A stretch of DNA of 64,000 bases from Candidatus Marinacidobacterales bacterium. Lineage in GTDB: Bacteria > Acidobacteriota > Vicinamibacteria > Marinacidobacterales > DATDRI01. The notes under the pieces are model-generated. The model was not told the origin of the DNA. It worked only from the letters and a program-made list of their open reading frames with translations, and did no database searches. The stretch's first letter is position 1, and each line of letters starts with the position of its first letter. The stretch is taken from NCBI GenBank assembly GCA_965226495.1, contig OZ245365.1:2080001-2144000 (forward strand), given 5' to 3'. This document shows positions 1 to 11,450 of this stretch, piece after piece. The translations under genes were made by a program, and so were the position numbers.

Positions 1-950
1 GCTCCCGCGTAGAAAATGAACATCAGAAGCAGATAGAACTTAGCCTTACTGTTCGCTCCGGCGAACTCCTTCCACACGAAGATTCCCCAGACGGCGGCAA
101 CCATGGGCGCACTCTGGCCGATGGCGTAGGAGATTGCGAAGCCAGCGGTACGACCAGCGATCAAATTGAAGGCGGTGCCGATGCACCAGATGAAGCCGCC
201 GACGAGGCCCAGAACGTGCCAGCTCGGCGCGCCCTGCACGTAGCCCGACAAAGAGACCGGCTCTCCCACCAGTGGTTTCTCCATGAAGTAGATGTTGAAG
301 ATGAAGGTCGAGACTAGGGCGGCCAACGTGAAGAAGACCACGCTCGTGTAGGGGGTCAACTGACCGGCGCCGGACGCCATGGAGGCCGCGGTGAAGGGCG
401 ACCAGCCTCCCATGAGGAGACCGCTCACGATGCAGATCCAGATTCCCTTCTTCGTGACCTTGAGCTTTCCACCTCCCAGCTCTTTGTAGGCGAGCGCATC
501 GGCGATGATGGCAACGAGCGCGAGTACAACACCGACGGCGAGCAACCGGACATCGCCCTTCGGCTCCACCAAGTAGGTCACGATGGTTCCCACGACCAGC
601 GCCGTGCCAATAGCCACCGGAAAGGCGACGGCCAGGCCGGCGATGGCAATGGCGGCGACCAGCAAGATGTTCGCGAGATTGAATACCGTCCCCCCGATCA
701 TCGCGAGGCCTAGTCGCGAGCCGGTGGCTTGCATCAGGTTCGGCATGAAGGCTTCCTCACCGCCGCCCCAGCTGCCGAGCGTGAAGGCGAGAAGTAACGC
801 CATCACGAAGATGCCGATGGCGTAGTCCCAGTAGAAGAGCTCGAAGCGGACGTCTTTGGTGAGTTTATAAGTGTTGGCCCAGGAGCCCCAGCAGATCATG
901 CAGATGATCATTAAAAGGAGGGCGAGCCCGTAAGATTCGGGTATGAACAT
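1..950 (-). CDS. GRP/ureide-permease-like DMT-superfamily transporter, 3' end runs off the window
   Basis: Not in the ORF track. Hand translation from ATG at 950 gives MFIPESYGLALLLMIICMICWGSWANT...RFELFYWDY...ISYAIGQSAPMVAAVWGIFVWKEF, a hydrophobic multi-TM protein with motifs typical of this family. Confidence 0.8.
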   Translation of the reverse strand, partial: MFIPESYGLALLLMIICMICWGSWANTYKLTKDVRFELFYWDYAIGIFVMALLLAFTLGSWGGGEEAFMPNLMQATGSRLGLAMIGGTVFNLANILLVAAIAIAGLAVAFPVAIGTALVVGTIVTYLVEPKGDVRLLAVGVVLALVAIIADALAYKELGGGKLKVTKKGIWICIVSGLLMGGWSPFTAASMASGAGQLTPYTSVVFFTLAALVSTFIFNIYFMEKPLVGEPVSLSGYVQGAPSWHVLGLVGGFIWCIGTAFNLIAGRTAGFAISYAIGQSAPMVAAVWGIFVWKEFAGANSKAKFYLLLMFIFYAG

Positions 951-1026
951 TCTTCATTCCCCTTTCTCGCGATTGCGAGACCAGACGAAGATTCGAGCAC
1001 TCTAGCATAAAGTACCTGAAAAAGGA

Positions 1027-2103
1027 CTAGTGCATCGAGGCCGACGACGCGACCGGACGCTTCATCAGCTGGAGGAACGCCTCGATGAAACGGGGATAGT
1101 CCAGATCGAGCTGCACCGTTGCGTTGCGCACACCTTCCGGTGGTTTGCGGCCATTGCCCCAATAGAGCATCGCCCCGTACTCGGCGTCGTGGTCGATCTC
1201 GATGTCGACCGGCATCTCCTCGGAACGCGCAATGATCCCCGGCTCGATCAACGCCAGCACCGCGATCTGGTCGTACATCAGCGGCGAGGCGGCGTGCTCG
1301 GACCGTGAGAGGAACGTGTCGGCGAAGTAACGGGAGATAGGAGAGTTTCCCTCCGCGGCGGCAGTTGCGACGTCCTTGGTAAACGGAGCCTGCTCGCAGA
1401 TGTTCAGGGGGGCAATCGCGACTCGCCGCCAAGGAGCTCGGAGAACCATCCGCGCCGCCTCCGGATCCATCCAAAAGTTGAACTCGGGAAGCGTTCCGAT
1501 ACCTCCCCCCATAATAATGATCTCCTTTGCTAGGGTAGCGATGGCGGGATCCTTTGCTAGGGCGAGTGCGACGTTAGTCAGAGGCCCGATCGCGGCGAGC
1601 ACCACTTCTCCCGGATGCCGGTGGATCGTGTCGATGATGAAGTTGACCGCGTGGGAAGATTCCGCTTTCTTTTCGGCGAACTCGCCATCCGGAGGGCTGA
1701 CGTCCCGGGGGCCTGGCCCATCTTCTCGCCAGGCGCCCTTGTAACCGCCATCACTGGTTTCGCCGAAGAGGATCTCTCGTCGCTTGGTTTCCTCCTGGGT
1801 ATTTAGGAGGGGTCTCTCTGCGCCGGCGAAGACGGGGACATCCGGACGAGCAGCAATCTCCAGAATCCTCAAAGCGTTCGCTACCTCTTGTTCCAGCCAA
1901 TCGTTGCCGGTGACGACCGTGACGCCGAGCACGTCGACCTCCTCTGACTGTAGGAGAATGAGCAAGGCCATGGCGTCGTCGCTTGCGAAGCCGAGGTCGG
2001 TGTCCACGATGACCTTGAGCCGCCCGGACGATTCCTGGGCGGCGCCATTTGTCACAAAGAATACAGTATGCAAGCTAAATAAAAGTGCTGCCGATCTGAT
2101 CAT
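1027..2103 (-). CDS. Nucleoside hydrolase (IUNH family) with probable signal peptide
   Basis: DTDLGFASDD (DxDxxxDD), IGPLTNVA, IMGG and EFNFWMDPEAA motifs; hydrophobic N-terminus ending GAAQ. Confidence 0.9.
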   Translation of the reverse strand: MIRSAALLFSLHTVFFVTNGAAQESSGRLKVIVDTDLGFASDDAMALLILLQSEEVDVLGVTVVTGNDWLEQEVANALRILEIAARPDVPVFAGAERPLLNTQEETKRREILFGETSDGGYKGAWREDGPGPRDVSPPDGEFAEKKAESSHAVNFIIDTIHRHPGEVVLAAIGPLTNVALALAKDPAIATLAKEIIIMGGGIGTLPEFNFWMDPEAARMVLRAPWRRVAIAPLNICEQAPFTKDVATAAAEGNSPISRYFADTFLSRSEHAASPLMYDQIAVLALIEPGIIARSEEMPVDIEIDHDAEYGAMLYWGNGRKPPEGVRNATVQLDLDYPRFIEAFLQLMKRPVASSASMH

Positions 2104-2175
2104 GCGCCCGAGTCTATGAGACGACCTGCCTTCATATCAAGACTTCTAATAATGGCTTATGGTGGCAGTTTGGAA

Positions 2176-2205
2176 TTGACAGGCGGGACGCGCACTCGCT
2201 ACAAT
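2176..2205 (+). promoter_or_regulatory. Sigma70-type promoter for the TonB receptor
   Basis: TTGACA-18 nt-TACAAT about 95 nt upstream of ATG 2300; GGAGG RBS precedes the start. Confidence 0.6.
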
Positions 2206-2299
2206 CCTCACGCGTCAGCGAAAAGGGGAGGGGAGTCTGCGCCGGCCCGCGCAACGGTTCCCAAACGGCCGACATGCTCTGGGCAGAAACGGAGGCCAT

Positions 2300-5254
2300 A
2301 TGACCGAAAACAGAAATTGCTTCAAGGTTTTCATGACCGTTCTCATTTTCGTCTTTGGAACGACGGCTGGCTTCGCGCAGACCCTCGACCGAGGTGAGCT
2401 GAGTGGGACGGTCATGGACGAGACGGGCGCCGCCCTTCCAGGCGCGACGGTCACTGTGACCCACTTGGGAAGCGGATTGACCCGCGTTGTTGTCAGCGAT
2501 AGTTCGGGTCGCTATCGAGCTCCGTTGCTGCCCGTGGGACCTTACCGGATCCAAGCCGAGCTTGCCGGCTTCGCCACACTGACCCGAGAAGGTGTCGTTG
2601 TGACGGTGGGATCGGCGCCGATCATCGACCTGACATTGCCTCTGGCAAGCGTGACGGAAGCGATCACTGTGACCGCCGACACTCCGGTCGTGCAAACGTC
2701 GCGAGCGGTCACCAGCACGACCCTCAACCAGGAGGCCATTTCCACGCTGCCTATCAACGGCCGGGACTTCCGTAACTTCGCTCTGCTCTCGCCGAGCGTG
2801 CAACAAAACGAAGCCCTCCGTGCCACGCTTCGCTTCGGCGGGCAGTCGGGCGACTATTCGCTGGTTGCGGTCGACGGTGCCGACCAAACCAATGCCTTCT
2901 TCGCGGAGTACACCGGCTCCCTGGAGACTAAGAACTTCGCCATCTCGCAAGAGGCCATCCAGGAGTTCCAGGTCCTGACCAACGGGTTCAACGCCGAGTT
3001 CGGCCGGTCCACCGGAGGGGTGATGAATGTGGTCACCAAGTCGGGGACAAATCAGACGCGCGCTTCGGCCTTTGCCTTCTTTCGAGACGGCGGCCTCAAG
3101 GCCGACGACCCGTTCGGGAATCCGGCTGGCGAGTTTAGCCAGAAACAGTTTGGGGGGAGCATCGGCGGTCCCATTGCCAAGGACAAGGCCTTCTTTTTCC
3201 TCGCGGCCGATCTGCAAAGACAAGATCAGACGAGCTTTACTCAATTCCGGCGGAACGTGGACGGAATCGCCGTTCCCGAATACGGGATCGCCAACCTGGC
3301 GGATCTGGAAGGGCCTTTCGTCGGAAGTCAGGATCTATCCACGGTCTTTGGAAAAGTCGATTTCGACGTCGCCGCCAACCATCGCCTCACGGTGCGTATG
3401 AATTACAGCAAGAACGAGACCACCAACTTCACGGCGCGGGGGACAGGAGTCGTAGCGGCCTCGGAGAGCAACTTCGAAGATTTCAGCAATACGGCCCTTT
3501 CGTTCGTGACCAGCTTGACCAGCGTCATCGGGACGAACGCGTTCAACGAGTTCAAGTTCCAGTACGTATTCGAGGATCGGCCACGCGAAGCGAAATCCGA
3601 CCTTCCGCAGGTTTCAATATTCGACACTTGCTCCGGGGGTTGCTTCGGACGCGAGTTCTTCCTCCCCATCAAGGGCGACAACGTCAAGATCCAATTCCAG
3701 GATAGTTTCAGCTATCTCTTCGGAAGCCACGACGTGAAGTTCGGCGTCGACTGGAACTCGAACCAGATCACCAACAACTCCTTCATCGGCTGGTCGCGGG
3801 GCCAATGGGACTTCTTCAGTTTGGAGGATTTTCAACGCCGGGCGCCGGGTGGATTCATTCAGCGGCAGTTCTTCGCCCCCTTCGATGAAGAGACAACCGA
3901 GACGAATAACTATTGGACTCACGAGCTTGGCCTTTTCATTCAGGACAAGTGGCAGCCGAAATCGAACCTGACGGTCAACTACGGTCTCCGCTACGAGGCT
4001 CAGTACAATGGTGATCCCAAGTTCCCTATTTCCGGACCAGACGGTACGATGGGCATGGTTCGGCAGGCACCGGGTACGGACCTGATTCCGGTTCCTCAGA
4101 CGATTGCCAACGACACCAACAATTTTGCTCCCCGGCTAGGTGTCTCGTGGGATCCCACGAACGATGGCCGCACCGTGGTGCGTGCTGCCTGGGGACTCTA
4201 CTTCGGCCGGACGGCGAGCATCTTCATGCCGACCGGAGGCGCCGGGTTCCGTGACACGACTTCCTTTCTTTTTCCGCCACCGGCAGGTTTGACCTTCCCC
4301 GACACTCTTCCGAGTCAGATACCGCCGGCCGCCGGCGTTCCTTCTATCAACTTTGTTGCCAACAACTTCAACAACCCACGCACCATGAACCTCAACGTCG
4401 GTATCGAGCGGGAGGTTGCTGACAGCATGTCGATCGGGTTTGACTACATCTTCTCCGACACCAAGAGCTCTCGCATCGGCGGGTTCAATAGTCAGTTCGA
4501 TCAAAACACTTTCGCCCCAACCGGGACGGACGAGTTCGGTCGCAACGTGGGGATCGGTGTCTTCACCCGAGGACGGCCCGATCCGAACTTCTTCCAGGCC
4601 GATATGCTGTCCAGCCTCGGACGCGGCCGCTACAACGCCGTCACCGTGACCTTCAAGAAGGGCTTCACCGAGCGCGGCCAGTTCTTTGCGCACTACACCT
4701 GGTCGAAGGATCAGTCGAATGCCGATGCAGAGCGGGATATCGGGATCAACATGGGGGTCGATAACCCGTTCGACGTGGAGTCGGCGTTCGGTCTCGATGA
4801 GCGGGACATGCCACATCGCTTCGTATTTCAGGGAACGGTGGATGTCGGGGCGGGCTTTTTGGTGAGCGGACTCGGCACTTTCCGCAGCGGTCGTGCCCTC
4901 GCCGCCTTCAACGACGTGGACGTCAACGGAGACGGCATCGGCAATCCTCCGTTCGACCGTCCGGTCGATGGCGGGGGCATCGTGGCGCGCTTTCCGGAGA
5001 GTCAGCCTAATTTCTATAACGTCGACATGCGCGTACAGTGGAGCGCCAACCTGGGTGGAGGAGGCGAGCTGGATCTCATCTTCGAGGTCTTCAACTTGTT
5101 CAACTTCAGCAACTACATCGCCACTCTCAATCATTTCACGGCACCGGCCTATGGTGCATGCAGCGCCGATCCGAACAGGGCTCTTTGCGACGCTTTTCTT
5201 GGCACGCCGAGAGAAGCTCAAATCGGCTTGAGGTGGAGATTCGGCGGAAATTAA
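2300..5254 (+). CDS. TonB-dependent receptor, Oar-like, with N-terminal carboxypeptidase-regulatory-like domain
   Basis: 984 aa; signal peptide; GTVMDETGAALPGATV, LPINGRDF, AEFGRSTGGVMNVVTKSGTN, NNFAPRLG; C-terminal REAQIGLRWRF. Confidence 0.92.
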   Translation: MTENRNCFKVFMTVLIFVFGTTAGFAQTLDRGELSGTVMDETGAALPGATVTVTHLGSGLTRVVVSDSSGRYRAPLLPVGPYRIQAELAGFATLTREGVVVTVGSAPIIDLTLPLASVTEAITVTADTPVVQTSRAVTSTTLNQEAISTLPINGRDFRNFALLSPSVQQNEALRATLRFGGQSGDYSLVAVDGADQTNAFFAEYTGSLETKNFAISQEAIQEFQVLTNGFNAEFGRSTGGVMNVVTKSGTNQTRASAFAFFRDGGLKADDPFGNPAGEFSQKQFGGSIGGPIAKDKAFFFLAADLQRQDQTSFTQFRRNVDGIAVPEYGIANLADLEGPFVGSQDLSTVFGKVDFDVAANHRLTVRMNYSKNETTNFTARGTGVVAASESNFEDFSNTALSFVTSLTSVIGTNAFNEFKFQYVFEDRPREAKSDLPQVSIFDTCSGGCFGREFFLPIKGDNVKIQFQDSFSYLFGSHDVKFGVDWNSNQITNNSFIGWSRGQWDFFSLEDFQRRAPGGFIQRQFFAPFDEETTETNNYWTHELGLFIQDKWQPKSNLTVNYGLRYEAQYNGDPKFPISGPDGTMGMVRQAPGTDLIPVPQTIANDTNNFAPRLGVSWDPTNDGRTVVRAAWGLYFGRTASIFMPTGGAGFRDTTSFLFPPPAGLTFPDTLPSQIPPAAGVPSINFVANNFNNPRTMNLNVGIEREVADSMSIGFDYIFSDTKSSRIGGFNSQFDQNTFAPTGTDEFGRNVGIGVFTRGRPDPNFFQADMLSSLGRGRYNAVTVTFKKGFTERGQFFAHYTWSKDQSNADAERDIGINMGVDNPFDVESAFGLDERDMPHRFVFQGTVDVGAGFLVSGLGTFRSGRALAAFNDVDVNGDGIGNPPFDRPVDGGGIVARFPESQPNFYNVDMRVQWSANLGGGGELDLIFEVFNLFNFSNYIATLNHFTAPAYGACSADPNRALCDAFLGTPREAQIGLRWRFGGN

Positions 5255-5278
5255 TCCTCCGTAAGAACTGCTAGAATG

Positions 5279-5311
5279 ATGCCGGGGCCCGTTGGGACCC
5301 CGGCATTTTTT
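5279..5311 (+). terminator. Rho-independent terminator after the TonB receptor
   Basis: ATGCCGGGG...CCCCGGCAT stem followed by a T-run; implies the next gene starts at ATG 5312. Confidence 0.75.
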
Positions 5312-6742
5312 ATGACTCCGGCGCTGGTTGTTCTTGCATGGCTGGTTGCCCCACCCACGATCGTCCAGGAGGAGACGTTCGAAGAGGTGATTACGCGCGC
5401 GGTTGTATCGGAGCGTGAGGGCCGGCTTGAAGATGCCACTGTCGCGTTCCAAGAAGCAGCACGACTTCGGCGCGACCATCCCCGCGTTTACTACAGCCTC
5501 GCATGGACCCTGTTCCAAAGGGGCTTGCTCAACGAGGCCCTCGAAGCCGTGGACTCTGCCCTGCGGCTCGACTCCGACGAAGCACTTTTTCACCTTTTCC
5601 AGGGTAAGGTTTTCCACGAGCTTGGAAACCTGCGAGAAGCCGAGAGAGCTTACCTAGAAACCATTCGCTTGGATCCCGAATCGAGCGATGCGTACCTGGC
5701 GCTCGCCGATGTCTATGCGACCACCGAGCAGTTCGAGAAATCGGTCGACGCGCTCCGCGCCTATCTGAGGATTCATCCGCAGGATACGCGGGCGTTGTAT
5801 TTCTTGGCCGGCGCCTTGAGCGATCAAAAACGCAGGGAAGAGGCGCTCGAGGTTTTCAATCAGGTCATCGAGCGGGAGCCCGATCATTCGCGCGCCTGGT
5901 TCCACAAGGCGCGTCTCGAGGCTCAAGATCCAAAAAATGCGGAGCTGGCGCTCGGTAGTTACGAGAGGTCTCTTCAGTTGGACTCGGCTTACGCGTTTAC
6001 TTACTACGAGTATGGGGCGCTCCTAGGAAAGCTAGGTCGTCTCGAAGAGGGAATAGCGGCCCTCGAGAAAGCGGTCGAGTTGGCACCCGAGTTATCTCAG
6101 GCTACGTACGCGCTCGGGAATCTCCTGAGTCGGGCGGGTCGTACCGACGAGGCCAAAGCCTATCTGGAGCGTTTCAAGTCACAAAGAGATGAGCAAGCCC
6201 GAACCGACGAACGGGCCAGGCGGGCGGTAGCGGCCCTGGGTACGGGACGCCAGCTACTTGAGGGGAATCGTTTGGAGGAGGCGGCAGAGGCCTTTCTCGA
6301 GCTCACCGAACTCGATCCGAAGAGCCATCAAGGCTACTCTTATCTTGCCAAGACCTATCGGTCCTTGGGGCAGGTTGAGGTGGCGATCGCGTACATCCGG
6401 CGCGCCATCGAGCTCGCTCCCGGAGCCTCAGAATATCCGTACCTGCTTTCGCTTTTTCTGAAAGATCGGCGAGATTTCGCAGGCTCGGTGGAAGCGGCGC
6501 GGCGCGCGGTAGCCTTGGGTCCAGGGAACTCAATGCTTCATAACGCCTTGGGGGTTATCTTGAGCGAGGCCGGCGATGCGCGAGGGGCCGTTGCGGCGTT
6601 CGAGGCCGCCGCCGAGCTCGATCCGGAGAACCCAACCTACAGTCTTAACCTCGCCGCTGCCTACGAAAGGATCGGGTCTGTGGAAAAAAGTGCCGTGGCT
6701 ATGGAGCGCTACCGGCAGCAGGTCGCAGCGCCGCCACCGTAG
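5312..6742 (+). CDS. Tetratricopeptide repeat protein, probably exported
   Basis: Many TPR units (A...LG...G...EA...Y..A..L.P). The ORF track starts at 5276, inside the terminator. Confidence 0.85.
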   Translation: MTPALVVLAWLVAPPTIVQEETFEEVITRAVVSEREGRLEDATVAFQEAARLRRDHPRVYYSLAWTLFQRGLLNEALEAVDSALRLDSDEALFHLFQGKVFHELGNLREAERAYLETIRLDPESSDAYLALADVYATTEQFEKSVDALRAYLRIHPQDTRALYFLAGALSDQKRREEALEVFNQVIEREPDHSRAWFHKARLEAQDPKNAELALGSYERSLQLDSAYAFTYYEYGALLGKLGRLEEGIAALEKAVELAPELSQATYALGNLLSRAGRTDEAKAYLERFKSQRDEQARTDERARRAVAALGTGRQLLEGNRLEEAAEAFLELTELDPKSHQGYSYLAKTYRSLGQVEVAIAYIRRAIELAPGASEYPYLLSLFLKDRRDFAGSVEAARRAVALGPGNSMLHNALGVILSEAGDARGAVAAFEAAAELDPENPTYSLNLAAAYERIGSVEKSAVAMERYRQQVAAPPP

Positions 6743-6745
6743 ACC

Positions 6746-7558
6746 ATGACCGATTGGGGAAACGCGCTGGCGCGTTCATATGCGCAAGCCAAACGAGGCG
6801 AAGGCGGGTTCACCTGCGCACAGATCCGCGACCTCACGAAGATCGACTTAGGCGACGAGTTTTCGCTGGTGATTGCGGTAGATTCCGACGGGGGTATCGG
6901 CTCTCGTGCACACGATCTGGTCAAAGTTCGCGAGTACGTCTTGGGACGATTCGCGATGAGAGTTCCTCTCATGGAGGTTCTCTCGTGTGGCGCGCTTCCC
7001 GTCGCCGCCTTCGACATGCTCACCGTGCCAATGGACGAGCTCGGTCGGGAAATTGTTCGCGGGGTGCGTGACGAGCTTGCGGAAGCCGGACTGGGTGCCG
7101 ACTTCCCATTGTCCGGAAGCACCGAAGATAACGTGCCCACCAATGCGACCGGAGTAGCAACGACGGTTCTAGGCGTTGTGCATCAGGACGATTTTCGTCC
7201 CGGAAGCTCTAGAGCCGGGGACAGAGTGCTGTGCGTAGGCCTTCCCAAGTCAGCGCCCGATGATGAGATTACTCTGGAAGACAAAGAGATTGTCCGGCTA
7301 TCGCATATCGCCAAATTATTGCGGATGGACGGTGTTCACGACGTTTTACCTGTGGGTTCGCGGGGAGTTTCGTACGAGGCGCGCGAGCTGGCGAGCTCGG
7401 CGGGCCTCGAGTTGATCGTGACTCGCGACACGAAGTTGGACGTAGACAAATCGGCAGGCCCTTCTACCTGCGTACTCTTATCCGTCTCCGCCGAGGAGAG
7501 CGTATCGGTAGCTCGAGGATTGAGCGTTCCCGTGACGGAGACTGGAACGCTCGCCTAG
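6746..7558 (+). CDS. AIR-synthase-superfamily protein resembling alpha-ribazole kinase CblS
   Basis: QIRDLT, VDSDGGIG...HD, RVPLMEV, GSTEDNVPT, PVGSRGVSYE and KSAGPSTC match my recollection of CblS-type proteins. Confidence 0.65.
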   Translation: MTDWGNALARSYAQAKRGEGGFTCAQIRDLTKIDLGDEFSLVIAVDSDGGIGSRAHDLVKVREYVLGRFAMRVPLMEVLSCGALPVAAFDMLTVPMDELGREIVRGVRDELAEAGLGADFPLSGSTEDNVPTNATGVATTVLGVVHQDDFRPGSSRAGDRVLCVGLPKSAPDDEITLEDKEIVRLSHIAKLLRMDGVHDVLPVGSRGVSYEARELASSAGLELIVTRDTKLDVDKSAGPSTCVLLSVSAEESVSVARGLSVPVTETGTLA

Positions 7559-7579
7559 GACGCTCGTCGGACAGTCGCT

Positions 7580-8017
7580 CTACCGCACCATCAACCACGT
7601 CCCGAAGAGAAGCGACGTCACTCCCAGAGTGCGTGCGATATCGAAGGGACGCACGTTGGTACCGAACAATCCGAAGTGGTCGACGAGCGCTCCCACCGTG
7701 AGCTGTGCGGCAACGAAAAGAGTGATCGTCGTTCCCACACCGAGCCGCGGGATCGCGTAGTTGATCGCGCTCAGTATGCCGACGCCTAGGGTGCCCGCGC
7801 CCAGCGCATACCAGGGTACCGTACGCCACTGAGCGATATTCCCGCCGCCCTGGCCGAGCAGCAGGATAGCGGCGAGGAGCGTCCCGCCGATGTGAATGAT
7901 GAGCACGCTTGCCATCAATCCCACGCGCTGTCCCATGAGACTGGCCAGCGTTGCCTGAAGCGCGGCCGCAACGCCTCCGGAGAACGCGACCAGGAGCTTG
8001 AACGCCATTCCCAACAT
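7580..8017 (-). CDS. DMT family transporter (YdcZ/DUF606-like)
   Basis: GGVAAALQA...PWYALGAGTLGV...PRLGVG...AQL..GALVDHFG. Start chosen from the GGAGG RBS; the ORF-track start (8110) overlaps the divergent gene. Confidence 0.8.
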   Translation of the reverse strand: MLGMAFKLLVAFSGGVAAALQATLASLMGQRVGLMASVLIIHIGGTLLAAILLLGQGGGNIAQWRTVPWYALGAGTLGVGILSAINYAIPRLGVGTTITLFVAAQLTVGALVDHFGLFGTNVRPFDIARTLGVTSLLFGTWLMVR

Positions 8018-8087
8018 CTGCATCACCCTCCACGTGTCATCGGCAGGTCGCGGTCCATACCGGATTGCCGTGGTATCCTCTGGAACC

Positions 8088-9089
8088 ATGGCGAGTATAA
8101 AAGAACGCATCTATGGTTGTCTGGTCGGTGTCGCCGCCGGGGACGCTATGGGGATGCCAACTTCCCTCATGAGTCGGGAGGCTATTAAGGAGACTTTCGG
8201 GGAGTACATCGAGGACTTCCTGCCGGCGCCCAAGGGACACGTCATTCATGATCGCATGGTGGCCGGACAAATCACCGACGATACGCAACACACGCTTCTG
8301 ATTGCCGACTCCATCATTCAAAAGGGACGAGTCGATCCGCACGATATCGCCGCTAGATTGATGAAGTGGGCGGAGGAGATGGGGGCCTTTGAGGGGTTGA
8401 TCGTGGGACCGAGCTCGTTGAGGGCGCTGCACCGACTCCGTCAGGGGGTACCCATCGAAGAGTCCGGCGTCACGGGAGATACCAATGGCGCTTCCATGAG
8501 GGTCTCGACGGTGGGGATCTATGGGGGTGGTGATCTCGGGAAAACGGTAGATGCCGTGGCGGCTGCCTGCATGCCGACCCACAACACGAACATCGCTATC
8601 GCGGGCGCGAGCGCAGTGGCTATGGTCATCGGTTGCGGCATCGCCGGCAGCGGGGACGTTGACGAGTTGATATCGCGAGCGCTCGAAGCGGTGGAGCTCG
8701 GTAGCAGCAAGGGGCGAGCCTGGTACGGGGCGTCGATCGTCAAACGTACCAAGCGGGCGCTCGAAATCGTCGAGGGTTCCACGGATCGCGATACGATCAT
8801 GAACGAGCTTTACGATGTCGTGGGCGCTGGCGTAGCCACGACCGAGACGGTACCGGTCTGCCTTGCCATGCTGAAGCTCGCCCAGGGAGAACCGGTGGAC
8901 GCCATCCGCCTGGCCACCAATTTGGGAGGGGATTGCGATACGACGGCCAGTATCGTGGGCGGCATGTGTGGCGCGATTGCCAGTATAAACGCCTTTCCGG
9001 TAGAGTGGATCGACAAACTGGAAGAGGTAAACGGCCTGCACCTCGAGGACTACGCCGATAAACTGACGCAGGTGGTTTCGAGCACTTAA
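8088..9089 (+). CDS. ADP-ribosylglycohydrolase family protein
   Basis: GVAAGDAMGMP, TDDT, TNGASMR, PTHNT and GGDCDTTASIVG motifs; ATG 8088 (MASIKERIYG) is the plausible start. Confidence 0.9.
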   Translation: MASIKERIYGCLVGVAAGDAMGMPTSLMSREAIKETFGEYIEDFLPAPKGHVIHDRMVAGQITDDTQHTLLIADSIIQKGRVDPHDIAARLMKWAEEMGAFEGLIVGPSSLRALHRLRQGVPIEESGVTGDTNGASMRVSTVGIYGGGDLGKTVDAVAAACMPTHNTNIAIAGASAVAMVIGCGIAGSGDVDELISRALEAVELGSSKGRAWYGASIVKRTKRALEIVEGSTDRDTIMNELYDVVGAGVATTETVPVCLAMLKLAQGEPVDAIRLATNLGGDCDTTASIVGGMCGAIASINAFPVEWIDKLEEVNGLHLEDYADKLTQVVSST

Positions 9090-9112
9090 TCCCCTTATCA
9101 CCCCATATCATT

Positions 9113-10789
9113 TTGACCCACGCGTTCTTCCCCACGTTCCTAGCTGCGCTCATTGCTCTTTTGGGTCCCGTACCTACAGAGGAGCGCTTCGAGCTCGCGT
9201 CGCCCCTCGACTTCACGCATCTCGCTGGAGCACCGGACAAGGACTACATCGTTGAGACGATGGGTTCGGGAGTTGCGCTCTTCGACTACGACGGCGACGC
9301 CGATCTAGACATCTACCTCATCAATGGCTCGACGCTCGACAGGGTGGCGACTGGCGAGCCGGGTGAGGCGAATCGGCTCTTCCGAAACGAGGGGGCCTGG
9401 TCGTTCACCGACGTCACCGAGCAGGCGGGAGTGGGGGATCGTGGATTCGGCCAAGGTGTCGCAGTAGCCGATATCGACAACGACGGAGATTCCGATCTCT
9501 ATCTGACCAACTACGGACCCAACGTTCTCTATAGCAACAACGGGGATGGTACGTTCTCCGCGAGCCCCGCGGGGGTCGAGGAAGAGCGGTGGAGCTCGGG
9601 AGCCGCTTTCGGTGATGTCGATAGCGACGGATTCGTCGATCTTTACGTCAGCAATTACCTCGACTTCGACCGTGAGCTGCTCGATCGCGCCATCCCGCGC
9701 CGGTTCTGTGAATGGAAGGGCCTGAAGGTACAGTGTGGGCCCAAGGGTTTCGGCTTCGTATCGGGAGTGCTCTATCACAACCGGGGCGATGGAACTTTCG
9801 AGGACTGGACGGAGCGATCGGGGGTCATGAACCGCGAGACCTACCAGCTGGGTGCCATCTTCTCCGACCTGGACTTGGATGGGGACCAGGACCTCTACGT
9901 CACGACCGACACCACCCTCAACCTGCTCTTCGAGAATCAAGGTGATGGGCGGTTTCGGGATCTATCGCTTCTGTCGGGAACCGCACTCTCCCAAAACGGC
10001 ATGGAACAAGCGGGGATGGGAATCGATGTCGGTGACGTGAACGCCGACGGCCGACCCGACTTGTTCGTTACGAACTTCTCGGACGATTACAACACCCTCT
10101 ACTTGAACCAAGAGGGCTTGACGTTCGTCGACTCCACGGATCTGGCGGGTCTCGGTTTGGCCAGCCTTCACTATCTCGGGTGGAGCACGAGGCTCGCGGA
10201 TTTGGATGCGGATGGAGACCTGGATATTTTCGTGGTGAATGGACATGTTTATCCGCAAGTAGATGGCTCGGATGTCGACGCAAGCTTCCGTCAACCGATG
10301 CAGGTGTTTCTCAATGACGGGCGCGGCAAGTTCGAAGACGCGACCGCAGGGCTCGGGTCGGTTCTCTCGGAGCCTCGTGCTTCGCGAGGCGCCGGGCTCG
10401 GAGATCTGGATGGAAACCACAGCCAGGACGTCGTGGTGAACGTCATGGATGGGTCTCCGGTATTGATTCGCAATCGAATTCCCGTCGCGGACCGCACTGT
10501 GGTCCTGAAGTTGGTCGGGCAGGAATCCAATCGCGGCGCCGTTGGGGCTCTGGTAATCGCGGAGATCGGGGACCGCACAACGGTCCGGGAGGTGCGTGGA
10601 GACCGTGGCTATCAGTCTCATAGCGATTCACGAATCTACATCGGTCTTGGAAACTCCCGGAGGATCGATGGGCTCACCATACGGTGGCCGAGCGGGAGGC
10701 GTGAGCTCCTAACCGAGCTCTCCCCTGGCTCTTATACCGTGCTAGAGGGCCAGGGCATCGTCTGGAAAAGCAAGAAGAAGAAAAACTAG
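9113..10789 (+). CDS. CRTAC1-family protein (FG-GAP repeats + ASPIC/UnbV domain)
   Basis: Repeated DxDxDGxxD motifs, ETMGSGVALFDYDGD, VNGHVYPQ, C-terminal GYQSHS..IYIGLG..IRWPSG. Confidence 0.9.
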   Translation: MTHAFFPTFLAALIALLGPVPTEERFELASPLDFTHLAGAPDKDYIVETMGSGVALFDYDGDADLDIYLINGSTLDRVATGEPGEANRLFRNEGAWSFTDVTEQAGVGDRGFGQGVAVADIDNDGDSDLYLTNYGPNVLYSNNGDGTFSASPAGVEEERWSSGAAFGDVDSDGFVDLYVSNYLDFDRELLDRAIPRRFCEWKGLKVQCGPKGFGFVSGVLYHNRGDGTFEDWTERSGVMNRETYQLGAIFSDLDLDGDQDLYVTTDTTLNLLFENQGDGRFRDLSLLSGTALSQNGMEQAGMGIDVGDVNADGRPDLFVTNFSDDYNTLYLNQEGLTFVDSTDLAGLGLASLHYLGWSTRLADLDADGDLDIFVVNGHVYPQVDGSDVDASFRQPMQVFLNDGRGKFEDATAGLGSVLSEPRASRGAGLGDLDGNHSQDVVVNVMDGSPVLIRNRIPVADRTVVLKLVGQESNRGAVGALVIAEIGDRTTVREVRGDRGYQSHSDSRIYIGLGNSRRIDGLTIRWPSGRRELLTELSPGSYTVLEGQGIVWKSKKKKN

Positions 10790-10853: not shown

Positions 10854-10904
10854 AATGTCTTTTGAAGGTGGTAGAATTCCTGCCGGTTGGAAGAAGGGAG
10901 GGGC

Positions 10905-11450
10905 ATGGCGTCGGCGATTGAACACGGGCGGACGGACAACATCAGGCGGGCCATTGTCTTTCTCATCCTGTTCGGTTTCTGGCTGATCTTTTCCGGGCAC
11001 TACGATCGGTTCCATATCAGCCTCGGTGTCATTTGTGCCGGACTCGTCGCGTTCTTCTCTTACGACCTGCTACTTCCCGAGCCGAAGTCGTCCAACACAC
11101 TACTGAAAACGTGGCGGTTTCTTCGCTACATACCCTGGCTGGTCTACCAGGTGCTGCTAGCGAACCTTCATGTCGTATACCTGGTCTTCTATCCCAACAA
11201 GATACGCCCTCAGATTGTCCGCTTCAAGACGACTCTGACGAGTGACCTCGCCAAGGTCAGCCTCGCCAACTCCATCACGCTGACGCCGGGGACGATCACG
11301 ATGGATATCAGCGATGGGGAGTTCACCATTCACGCACTGAGCGACAAAGTGGCGAAGGATTTGCTTACCGGCGAAATGGAGCGGCGCGTCGCACACGTCT
11401 TTCTCGAACCGGCTCCTCCAATAAGCCCCACCAGCGGTCGGGAGAGGTGA
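10905..11450 (+). CDS. mrpE: Na+/H+ antiporter subunit E
   Basis: LANSITLTPGTIT motif; ATG 10905 follows GGAGG; extended -10 TGgTAGAAT at 10869-10877. Confidence 0.88.
   Translation: MASAIEHGRTDNIRRAIVFLILFGFWLIFSGHYDRFHISLGVICAGLVAFFSYDLLLPEPKSSNTLLKTWRFLRYIPWLVYQVLLANLHVVYLVFYPNKIRPQIVRFKTTLTSDLAKVSLANSITLTPGTITMDISDGEFTIHALSDKVAKDLLTGEMERRVAHVFLEPAPPISPTSGRER

Follow-up and report, generated by a model that had tools for sequence, protein, structure and literature searches.

What is accomplished by a locus in which an outer-membrane receptor, nucleoside hydrolases, transporters, a small kinase and an ADP-ribosylglycohydrolase (ARH) are encoded side by side? The question is raised by the first 10,789 nucleotides of a 64,000-nucleotide stretch of Candidatus Marinacidobacterales bacterium (contig OZ245365.1, positions 2,080,001 to 2,144,000; the whole stretch is called the window below). 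A preliminary description of this DNA had tentatively read the genes as one system for scavenging unusual ribosides or ADP-ribosyl conjugates. Comparison with other genomes shows that the region joins two modules that can occur apart, and is not a single system. The first module, made up of a TonB receptor, a TPR protein, a CRTAC1-like protein, nucleoside hydrolases, a permease and a ribokinase, is conserved at the level of the taxonomic order. The second is a cassette of transporter, kinase and ARH, which we give an even chance of being a riboside salvage route that phosphorylates its substrate and then deglycosylates it.

Gene calls were made from the open reading frame (ORF) list together with Pfam and NCBIfam profile matches on the window proteins. 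They recovered all eight genes of the preliminary description where it had placed them:

3–950, minus strand: GRP/RhaT-GlcU-type DMT sugar permease (Pfam Ureide_permease, 84 bits); the full gene encodes 325 residues and extends beyond the window.
1027–2103, minus strand: inosine-uridine-type nucleoside hydrolase (IU_nuc_hydro; PF01156, 234.9 bits).
2300–5254, plus strand: TonB-dependent outer-membrane receptor, which opens the plus-strand operon (CarboxypepD_reg and OMP_b-brl_4).
5276–6742, plus strand: periplasmic TPR protein, the partner of the receptor (TPR families in Pfam).
6746–7558, plus strand: CblS-related small kinase of 270 residues with a predicted PurM fold (AIRS N-domain, weak match of 26 bits).
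7580–8110, minus strand: YdcZ-type half-size DMT inner-membrane transporter (PF04657, DMT_YdcZ, 93.5 bits); translation probably begins at the Met near 8023.
8088–9089, plus strand (longest ORF from 7998): YegU-like ARH (PF03747, ADP_ribosyl_GH, 214 bits).
9113–10789, plus strand: secreted CRTAC1/ASPIC-like FG-GAP β-propeller protein (six FG-GAP_3 matches and UnbV_ASPIC).

For the kinase the AIRS match is weak, and the fold comes from a structural model.

The kinase and the ARH form the core of the cassette, and their linkage was observed across phyla. We compared 43 related loci from species-representative genomes, scoring all ORFs against the window proteins. An ARH gene lay downstream of the kinase gene, on the same strand and within ~3.5 kb, in 39 of the 43. 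Two of the exceptions (L036 and L043) stop at a contig edge, and the other two, both from Halanaerobiaceae (L042 and L046), show no ARH in the DNA examined. The loci with the pair come from Acidobacteriota, Calditrichota, Fidelibacterota/Marinimicrobia, Ignavibacteriota and metagenome-assembled genomes (MAGs) labelled Bacteroidota. In genome G131 the orthologues of kinase and ARH are only 49 nt apart on one contig, with the ARH downstream. A transporter always accompanies the pair, although its type varies: it is of the DMT type in Acidobacteriota, where it adjoins the pair in 7 of 8 loci (the window counted), and elsewhere it is either an ECF S component with ATPase and T subunits or a CNT. 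Literature on ARHs with ribazole, or with ribokinase and nucleosides, yielded no description of the kinase–ARH pair.

The wider surroundings of the pair were counted over 44 loci, and these counts are lower bounds as many contigs are short. In the typical order a calcineurin-like phosphoesterase comes first (near the pair in at least 27 loci), followed by a GntR/UTRA regulator (at least 29). The phosphoesterase of L041, the one Ignavibacteriales copy scanned, bears a CBM9 domain. At least 10 loci of other phyla (Calditrichota and Ignavibacteriota relatives) have an ECF S component immediately ahead of the kinase, and in some loci an ECF ATPase (at least 11) and a T subunit (at least 9) lie between kinase and ARH. 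Two TonB receptors follow the ARH in at least 25 loci; their best matches are BtuB models, far below threshold. Further downstream are a YncE-like β-propeller (at least 15) and a BtuF/IsdE-like binding protein (at least 5, again a sub-threshold match). Nucleoside-handling neighbours are adenosylhomocysteinase (at least 11), a NupC-type nucleoside transporter (at least 8) and adenosine deaminase (at least 3). What stays constant is the kinase and the ARH together with an inner-membrane transporter, whose type varies; a GntR regulator and TonB uptake usually accompany them in a nucleoside-handling neighbourhood.

The other module reaches beyond the window. Its minus-strand operon runs on past the permease gene and out of the window on the upstream side, with two further IU hydrolase genes, both with signal-peptide-like leaders, and a PfkB kinase gene whose product is a ribokinase (TIGR02152, 337 bits against a cut-off of 299.65). 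This brings the IU_nuc_hydro genes at the locus to three, one inside the window and two just upstream. The hydrolase inside the window also begins with a signal-peptide-like leader (MIRSAALLFSLHTVFFVTNGAAQ, judged by eye from the translation), and with this putative leader it looks periplasmic or secreted. The permease matched TIGR00776 at 32 bits, under the cut-off, so that its assignment is at the family level; it is presumed to import ribose, a substrate read from the gene context. With hydrolases, permease and ribokinase together in the minus-strand operon, the left half of the locus reads as periplasmic nucleoside hydrolysis, ribose import and a ribokinase step. On the other strand, a promoter-like site (2176–2205, 11 of 12 positions matching) lies ahead of the receptor gene. 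Genes for a PhoA-type alkaline phosphatase and a fourth IU-type nucleoside hydrolase (446 residues, with a long N-terminal extension) are found 6–11 kb upstream of the window start (L002:1103-2620(+) and L002:5019-6359(+)), with a sigma/anti-sigma-like pair and an HNH protein between them and the locus. This phosphatase and hydrolase may extend nucleotide scavenging.

That the two modules are separable was seen in both directions. The permease is present in 16 of 31 relatives (a tally that includes G307, flagged as unpublished), always beside a nucleoside hydrolase and mostly beside a ribokinase, and the 270-residue kinase is present in just 4 of the 31. Five permease loci were inspected, all from relatives with no match to this kinase. 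One of them, L053, carries contiguous ribokinase–hydrolase–permease–hydrolase genes divergent from receptor–TPR–CRTAC1 genes, with CRTAC1 directly after TPR and no cassette. L049 has the same arrangement as far as the end of the retrieved stretch. The remaining three retain only hydrolase and permease, with the ribokinase as well in two. Adjacent receptor and TPR genes were retained in L004, L005, L040, L049 and L053. The arrangement in L053 and L049 marks the DMT, kinase and ARH genes as a cassette that entered an older locus between TPR and CRTAC1. The CRTAC1-like protein thus belongs to the receptor module and not to the cassette. In the other direction, 32 loci of other phyla hold the pair without IU hydrolases, GRP permease, TPR protein or CRTAC1.

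These observations bear directly on the first alternative, in which all eight genes form one integrated system that handles a single class of ribosides derived from NAD or cobamides, or of ADP-ribosyl adducts, all the way from uptake at the outer membrane to phosphorylation in the cytoplasm. In its favour, the spacing of the genes is tight: the kinase gene starts 4 nt past the TPR stop codon, and 23 nt separate the end of the ARH gene from the CRTAC1-like gene. The complete layout (ribokinase, two hydrolases, permease and hydrolase on one strand; receptor, TPR and kinase; DMT; ARH and CRTAC1) recurs in two Marinacidobacterales genomes (L004 and L040), part of it persists in L005 (receptor–TPR–TPR, DMT, kinase–ARH–CRTAC1), and the pair lies beside TonB receptors in other phyla too. 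However, L053 and L049 carry the receptor/hydrolase module without the cassette, the pair occurs without that module in four other phyla (the 32 loci above), and the permease is far more widespread among the relatives than the kinase. The expectation that the genes would co-occur in other genomes held for the kinase and ARH, and failed for the entire layout, which is confined to L004 and L040. The single conserved system of the preliminary description therefore breaks up into two, and we consider it an unlikely explanation.

What kind of enzyme is the kinase? No NCBIfam model matched it at E ≤ 0.01, and neither Pfam nor NCBIfam names its family; source records label its relatives 'AIR synthase related' or 'selenophosphate synthetase-related'. 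An AlphaFold model built with the family alignment had a pLDDT of 92.9 and a pTM of 0.91, and Foldseek matched it to SelD (selenophosphate synthetase), PurM, PurL, ThiL and HypE with probability 1.0 and TM scores of 0.6–0.68. On the basis of this model, it is predicted to be a minimal two-domain, ATP-utilising enzyme of the PurM superfamily. Invariant motifs in the alignment (38 members of the 270-residue protein family) include AVDSDG, SGSxE.N and KS.GP.TC. The earlier label of a CblS-like kinase received indirect backing from a protein atlas, where a Bacillota protein (P0138) and one from the ARH-linked clade (P0060, which shares 54% identity with the window kinase) adjoin clusters named 'alpha-ribazole kinase' (0.97; ~220 of 256 features), and received none from NCBIfam. 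As these clusters were named automatically, the atlas naming is a lead and not a test.

A maximum-likelihood tree of 56 family members separated two sister groups with 95/94 support. The first contains all 37 ARH-linked rows, among them the window kinase, and the truncated L036. The second contains 18 rows, of which three are the ARH-less Halanaerobiaceae loci and 15 are sequences of Bacillota from databases. Three sequences were left out of the tree: L016 and L040, both frameshifted, and L032, nearly identical to L031. A HMMER search of all libraries for the kinase family found 495 clusters (50% identity) at E ≤ 0.001 and 122 at E ≤ 1e-30. Within a sample of 301 genomes of the phylum, the kinase was found at E ≤ 1e-10 in only three: the window's genome, G131 (61% identity) and G011 (33%).

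Some members of the family have unusual architectures. In P0254 (475 residues) the kinase family is joined to a precorrin-2-dehydrogenase-like NAD_binding_7 domain, a tetrapyrrole hint in some lineages. In P0286 (488 residues) the kinase N-domain is joined to an ABC ATPase, probably by read-through into an ECF ATPase gene. Three MAGs of the same lineage have a frameshifted or split kinase gene (L016:9983-11785, L040:9998-10809 and G301:C23:111289-112088), and at least the first two bear UUID-style isolate names. Assembly error or gene decay may be the cause. A 601-residue kinase–ARH 'fusion' in L016 was rejected as a frameshift: the C-terminus of the kinase is out of frame after 'LPVGSR', and a match in a separate frame supplies the missing part. 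A search for longer proteins that would support such a fusion found none, which is weak evidence.

The relationship to CblS suggests a second alternative, in which the kinase is a true α-ribazole kinase that supplies α-ribazole-5'-phosphate to CobS in an organism without CobT, as in Listeria, and the ARH trims or controls the pool. The genome of the window fits this description. It has a cobalamin riboswitch at 1,225,523, followed by BtuB-BtuF-BtuD-BtuC, a PduO-type adenosyltransferase, CobQ, CobS, CobC and CobU (G000:C1:1225523-1236000, L048), and its CobC scores above the α-ribazole phosphatase cut-off. PF02277 (CobT) has no match anywhere in the single 6.34-Mb contig; a 447-residue ORF after CobU was considered as a hidden CobT and rejected, as it had weak TPR matches alone. 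G331, of the same genus, is likewise CobS-positive and CobT-negative. This combination of CobS, CobU and CobC without CobT resembles the situation in Listeria and makes a CblS role possible in this genus. The nearest named atlas clusters and the domain joined to the kinase family in P0254 point the same way, and the three Halanaerobiaceae homologues without an ARH neighbour are all in CobS-positive genomes.

Several observations argue against an α-ribazole kinase function for the ARH-linked clade. The window kinase is co-transcribed with a receptor that is not of the BtuB type, and it lies 0.85 Mb from the cob operon. A genome with CobS and no PF02277 match is nothing out of the ordinary: CobS was found in 9 control genomes and CobT in 6. 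Among the 41 other kinase-bearing genomes (L032 and L041 were not counted, as they share a MAG with L031 and L029), CobS was found in four and CobT above the cut-off in one. The four are G331 and the three Halanaerobiaceae genomes. In the remaining 37, all ARH-linked (counting L036, whose contig ends early), there was no CobS match; these are MAGs that may be incomplete, so that single absences are weak, whereas 37 of 41 is not. An Rfam scan of 27 loci found no cobalamin riboswitch before the kinase–ARH pair. The only riboswitch in these loci (L013:7447-7627(-), 79.5 bits, from a Marinimicrobia MAG) fronts a TonB receptor that is divergent from the phosphoesterase–GntR–kinase–ARH operon. The lack of CobS in 37 of 41 genomes and of a riboswitch before the pair argues that the ARH-linked clade does not have a general function in B12 assembly, and the cobamide link raised in the preliminary description is accordingly weak. 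A CblS function would also leave the ARH without a role. We therefore regard this explanation as distinctly unlikely.

The ARH matched PF03747 over almost the whole profile (positions 1–285 of 287; 214 bits against a cut-off of 26.2). It aligned with E. coli YegU from end to end (38% identity over 328 residues, E 8e-68) and appears from this alignment to be its orthologue, which upholds the resemblance to yegTUV noted earlier. Its best solved relative is MJ1187, and other relatives in the PDB are DraG and ARH3. The window protein contains the motifs GDAMGMPTS, ITDDTQ and GGDCDTT. TDDT is present in 40 of 40 kinase-linked ARHs, and GGD[CA]DT in all 38 that reach that region (two are cut by contig ends). 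In ARH3 and DraG, these two motifs (TDDT and GGDxDT) are described as metal ligands. Being invariant or nearly so across phyla, they argue for a working metal site. Within the sample from the phylum, 35 of 301 genomes carry some ARH paralogue, and the sole other close orthologue (70%) is in G131. The window's genome has two more distant paralogues of 29–33% identity (G000:C1:2839587-2840447(-) and 2484100-2484960(-)).

One position sets the kinase-linked ARHs apart. The Glu of GDxxGxxxE is replaced in all 40, by Ser in 37 (including the window protein) and by Ala in 3, and the aligned position is Glu in YegU, MJ1187, the Thermus thermophilus ARH, DraG and Lmo0067. This column is presumed to be equivalent to Glu41 of human ARH3. 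According to Rack et al. (PMC8319183), the E41A mutant of ARH3 is catalytically inactive, and a Glu-assisted first attack is argued to be unnecessary for the N-glycoside α-NAD+. We hold it very improbable that the ARH acts as a DraG- or Tri1-like regulatory de-ADP-ribosylase on a protein target, or is an inactive pseudo-enzyme, forming with the kinase a regulatory pair and not a catabolic one. Its best NCBIfam matches are DraG and Tri1 (78 and 65 bits, far under the cut-off), and the conserved loss of Glu could mean a non-catalytic protein. Against this, the metal-site motifs are kept, no ADP-ribosyltransferase was seen among the conserved neighbours, and those neighbours that recur are transporters, a small-molecule regulator of the GntR/UTRA type and genes for handling nucleosides.

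How do the two modules compare with known systems? The cassette resembles yegTUV of E. coli in combining a transporter, a kinase and an ARH-family hydrolase, and in its association with a GntR-type regulator (the GntR/UTRA protein of the pair loci, YegW/GgaR in E. coli). YegW represses yegTUV (PMC10819704). The two differ in the kinase, which has a PurM fold here and is a PfkB protein (YegV) in E. coli; in the transporter, which is DMT, ECF or CNT in the pair loci (DMT_YdcZ in the window) and an NHS-type MFS protein (YegT) in E. coli; and in the ARH, with Ser or Ala in place of the Glu of YegU. TonB receptors are also attached to the pair. The cassette is thus an arrangement of the yegTUV type whose kinase and transporter are not homologous to those of E. 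coli and whose ARH is of a distinctive subtype, and it is new in these features.

The locus as a whole is, by analogy of gene content, an acidobacterial counterpart of the rus ribose-utilisation loci of Bacteroidetes. Glowacki et al. (bioRxiv 10.1101/574913) describe ~70 configurations of rus, in which a TonB-dependent receptor is combined with ribokinases, a permease, and both nucleoside hydrolases and ADP-ribosylglycohydrolases. Rus and the window locus have a TonB receptor beside nucleoside hydrolases, a ribokinase and a permease, and rus loci scavenge ribose from varied ribosides, with ARHs in some variants. The preliminary description had not recognised its gene combination as a described system; as a kind, it is already represented by rus. 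There are differences: PurM-fold kinases, present here, are not mentioned in the passages on rus that were consulted. The window receptor is of the OMP_b-brl_4 type and has no SusC/RagA signature match, and TPR and CRTAC1-like proteins replace SusD. No RusR-like regulator was seen at the window locus, its hydrolases are triplicated with signal-peptide-like leaders, and the phylum is Acidobacteriota.

Two further systems resemble the cassette in part. The CblT–CblS route for salvage of α-ribazole in Listeria and other Firmicutes was reportedly described by Gray and Escalante-Semerena in 2010 (cited in PMC6461909 and PMC6167548). Its likeness lies in the small AIRS/PurM-type kinase (270 residues in the window, ~250–270 in CblS), in the ECF S gene directly upstream of the kinase in Calditrichota and Ignavibacteriota relatives, and in a genome with CobS, CobU and CobC and no CobT match. 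In contrast, the window locus has a YdcZ DMT transporter in place of an ECF S component. The clade of the window kinase also stands apart in the tree from the Bacillota sequences, and it is ARH-paired, free of B12 riboswitches and mostly in genomes without CobS. In pseudouridine catabolism, PsuT, PsuK (YeiC) and PsuG (YeiN) import a resistant nucleoside, phosphorylate its 5'-OH and cleave the monophosphate to base and ribose-5-phosphate. This is the same phosphorylate-then-cleave logic as we propose for the cassette, but its enzymes are of unrelated families (a PfkB kinase and a YeiN-type C-glycosidase).

We propose the following roles for the two modules. The receptor, with its secreted TPR and CRTAC1-like partners, would take up nucleosides or nucleic-acid fragments, and the three leader-bearing hydrolases would free ribose in the periplasm. 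The GRP/RhaT-type permease would bring the ribose in, and the ribokinase would yield ribose-5-phosphate. The cassette would import a riboside that resists ordinary β-nucleoside hydrolases. In the cytoplasm, the PurM-fold kinase would phosphorylate its 5'-OH, a reaction for which CblS is the precedent in this fold, and the ARH would then cleave the glycosidic bond of the riboside-5'-phosphate to give the base or aglycone and ribose-5-phosphate. The locus encodes functions for uptake through the outer membrane, N-glycoside hydrolysis in the periplasm and import, together with a riboside-type kinase and an ARH, and to this extent the idea of riboside scavenging is sustained. For the cassette, we infer both enzymatic steps, their order and the substrate, and it is to this proposal that we assign the even chance.

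What weighs against this proposal? In the window the DMT gene lies on the opposite strand between kinase and ARH, so that the two are not co-transcribed there. None of the 40 kinase-linked ARHs has the Glu found in five solved relatives and YegU; together with the inactivity of ARH3 E41A, this means that the ARH could be a binding protein or could use a different chemistry. To our knowledge the ARH family acts only on α-linked ADP-ribose substrates, which fits neither ordinary β-nucleosides nor a simple nucleoside monophosphate. No protein from either of the paired families has a demonstrated enzyme activity. The closest analogue, yegTUV, has itself no known function or substrate (PMC10819704). 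The ribose specificity of the permease and the ligand of the receptor are likewise read from gene context.

The proposal also has a bolder, more specific form. The kinase and the Glu-less ARH could be the first catabolic route for α-N-ribosides, a suggestion we make with little confidence. Candidate substrates are α-ribazole, other cobamide lower-ligand nucleosides, and α-anomeric breakdown products of NAD or ADP-ribose. The kinase would make an α-riboside-5'-phosphate, from which the ARH would release the base and ribose-5-phosphate. By chemical analogy, the bond to be cleaved would be of the same kind as that which ARHs cleave in α-ADP-ribosyl-arginine or α-NAD+, and an α-riboside-5'-phosphate such as α-ribazole phosphate would be the closest small-molecule analogue of ARH substrates. 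Such a substrate would explain the company of the pair (TonB receptors and binding proteins with best sub-threshold matches to BtuB and BtuF), the ECF S component upstream of the kinase in some phyla, and the presence of the pair in genomes unable to use α-ribazole for B12 synthesis. It would also explain the loss of Glu, which fits an N-glycoside with a good leaving group, Glu being less needed for N-glycosides according to the ARH3 authors (PMC8319183). Against an α-riboside substrate, α-ribosides are rare, and B12 regulation was not seen at the pair.

Downstream of the locus, an operon for an Mnh/Mrp Na+/H+ antiporter opens right after the CRTAC1-like gene (MnhE, 119 bits; window 10887-11450(+) onward). 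It is the downstream neighbour in L004 and L040 too and is apparently unrelated to the locus. Most of the stretch was recovered in 18 DNA runs from seven studies. In two metatranscriptome runs, six short perfect-match contigs fell on the receptor gene and one on the ARH gene; this is a weak signal of transcription, as DNA carry-over is possible, and stretches without coverage are uninformative.

ARH genes beside kinases and nucleoside transporters occur widely, yegTUV and many rus loci being examples, and no substrate is known for them. The cassette defines a second, phylum-crossing form of the yegTUV-like arrangement, in which the kinase is a relative of the α-ribazole kinase of B12 metabolism and the ARH active site is changed throughout the family. 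Two small soluble proteins are enough for a direct test of its substrate. The remainder of the locus carries the idea of TonB-receptor ribose scavenging from Bacteroidetes to Acidobacteriota. If the substrate is indeed an α-riboside, the cassette would provide the first known degradative fate of cobamide lower-ligand nucleosides and a new type of reaction for the ARH fold, and would be relevant to the cycling of B12 and NAD in marine and sediment communities.

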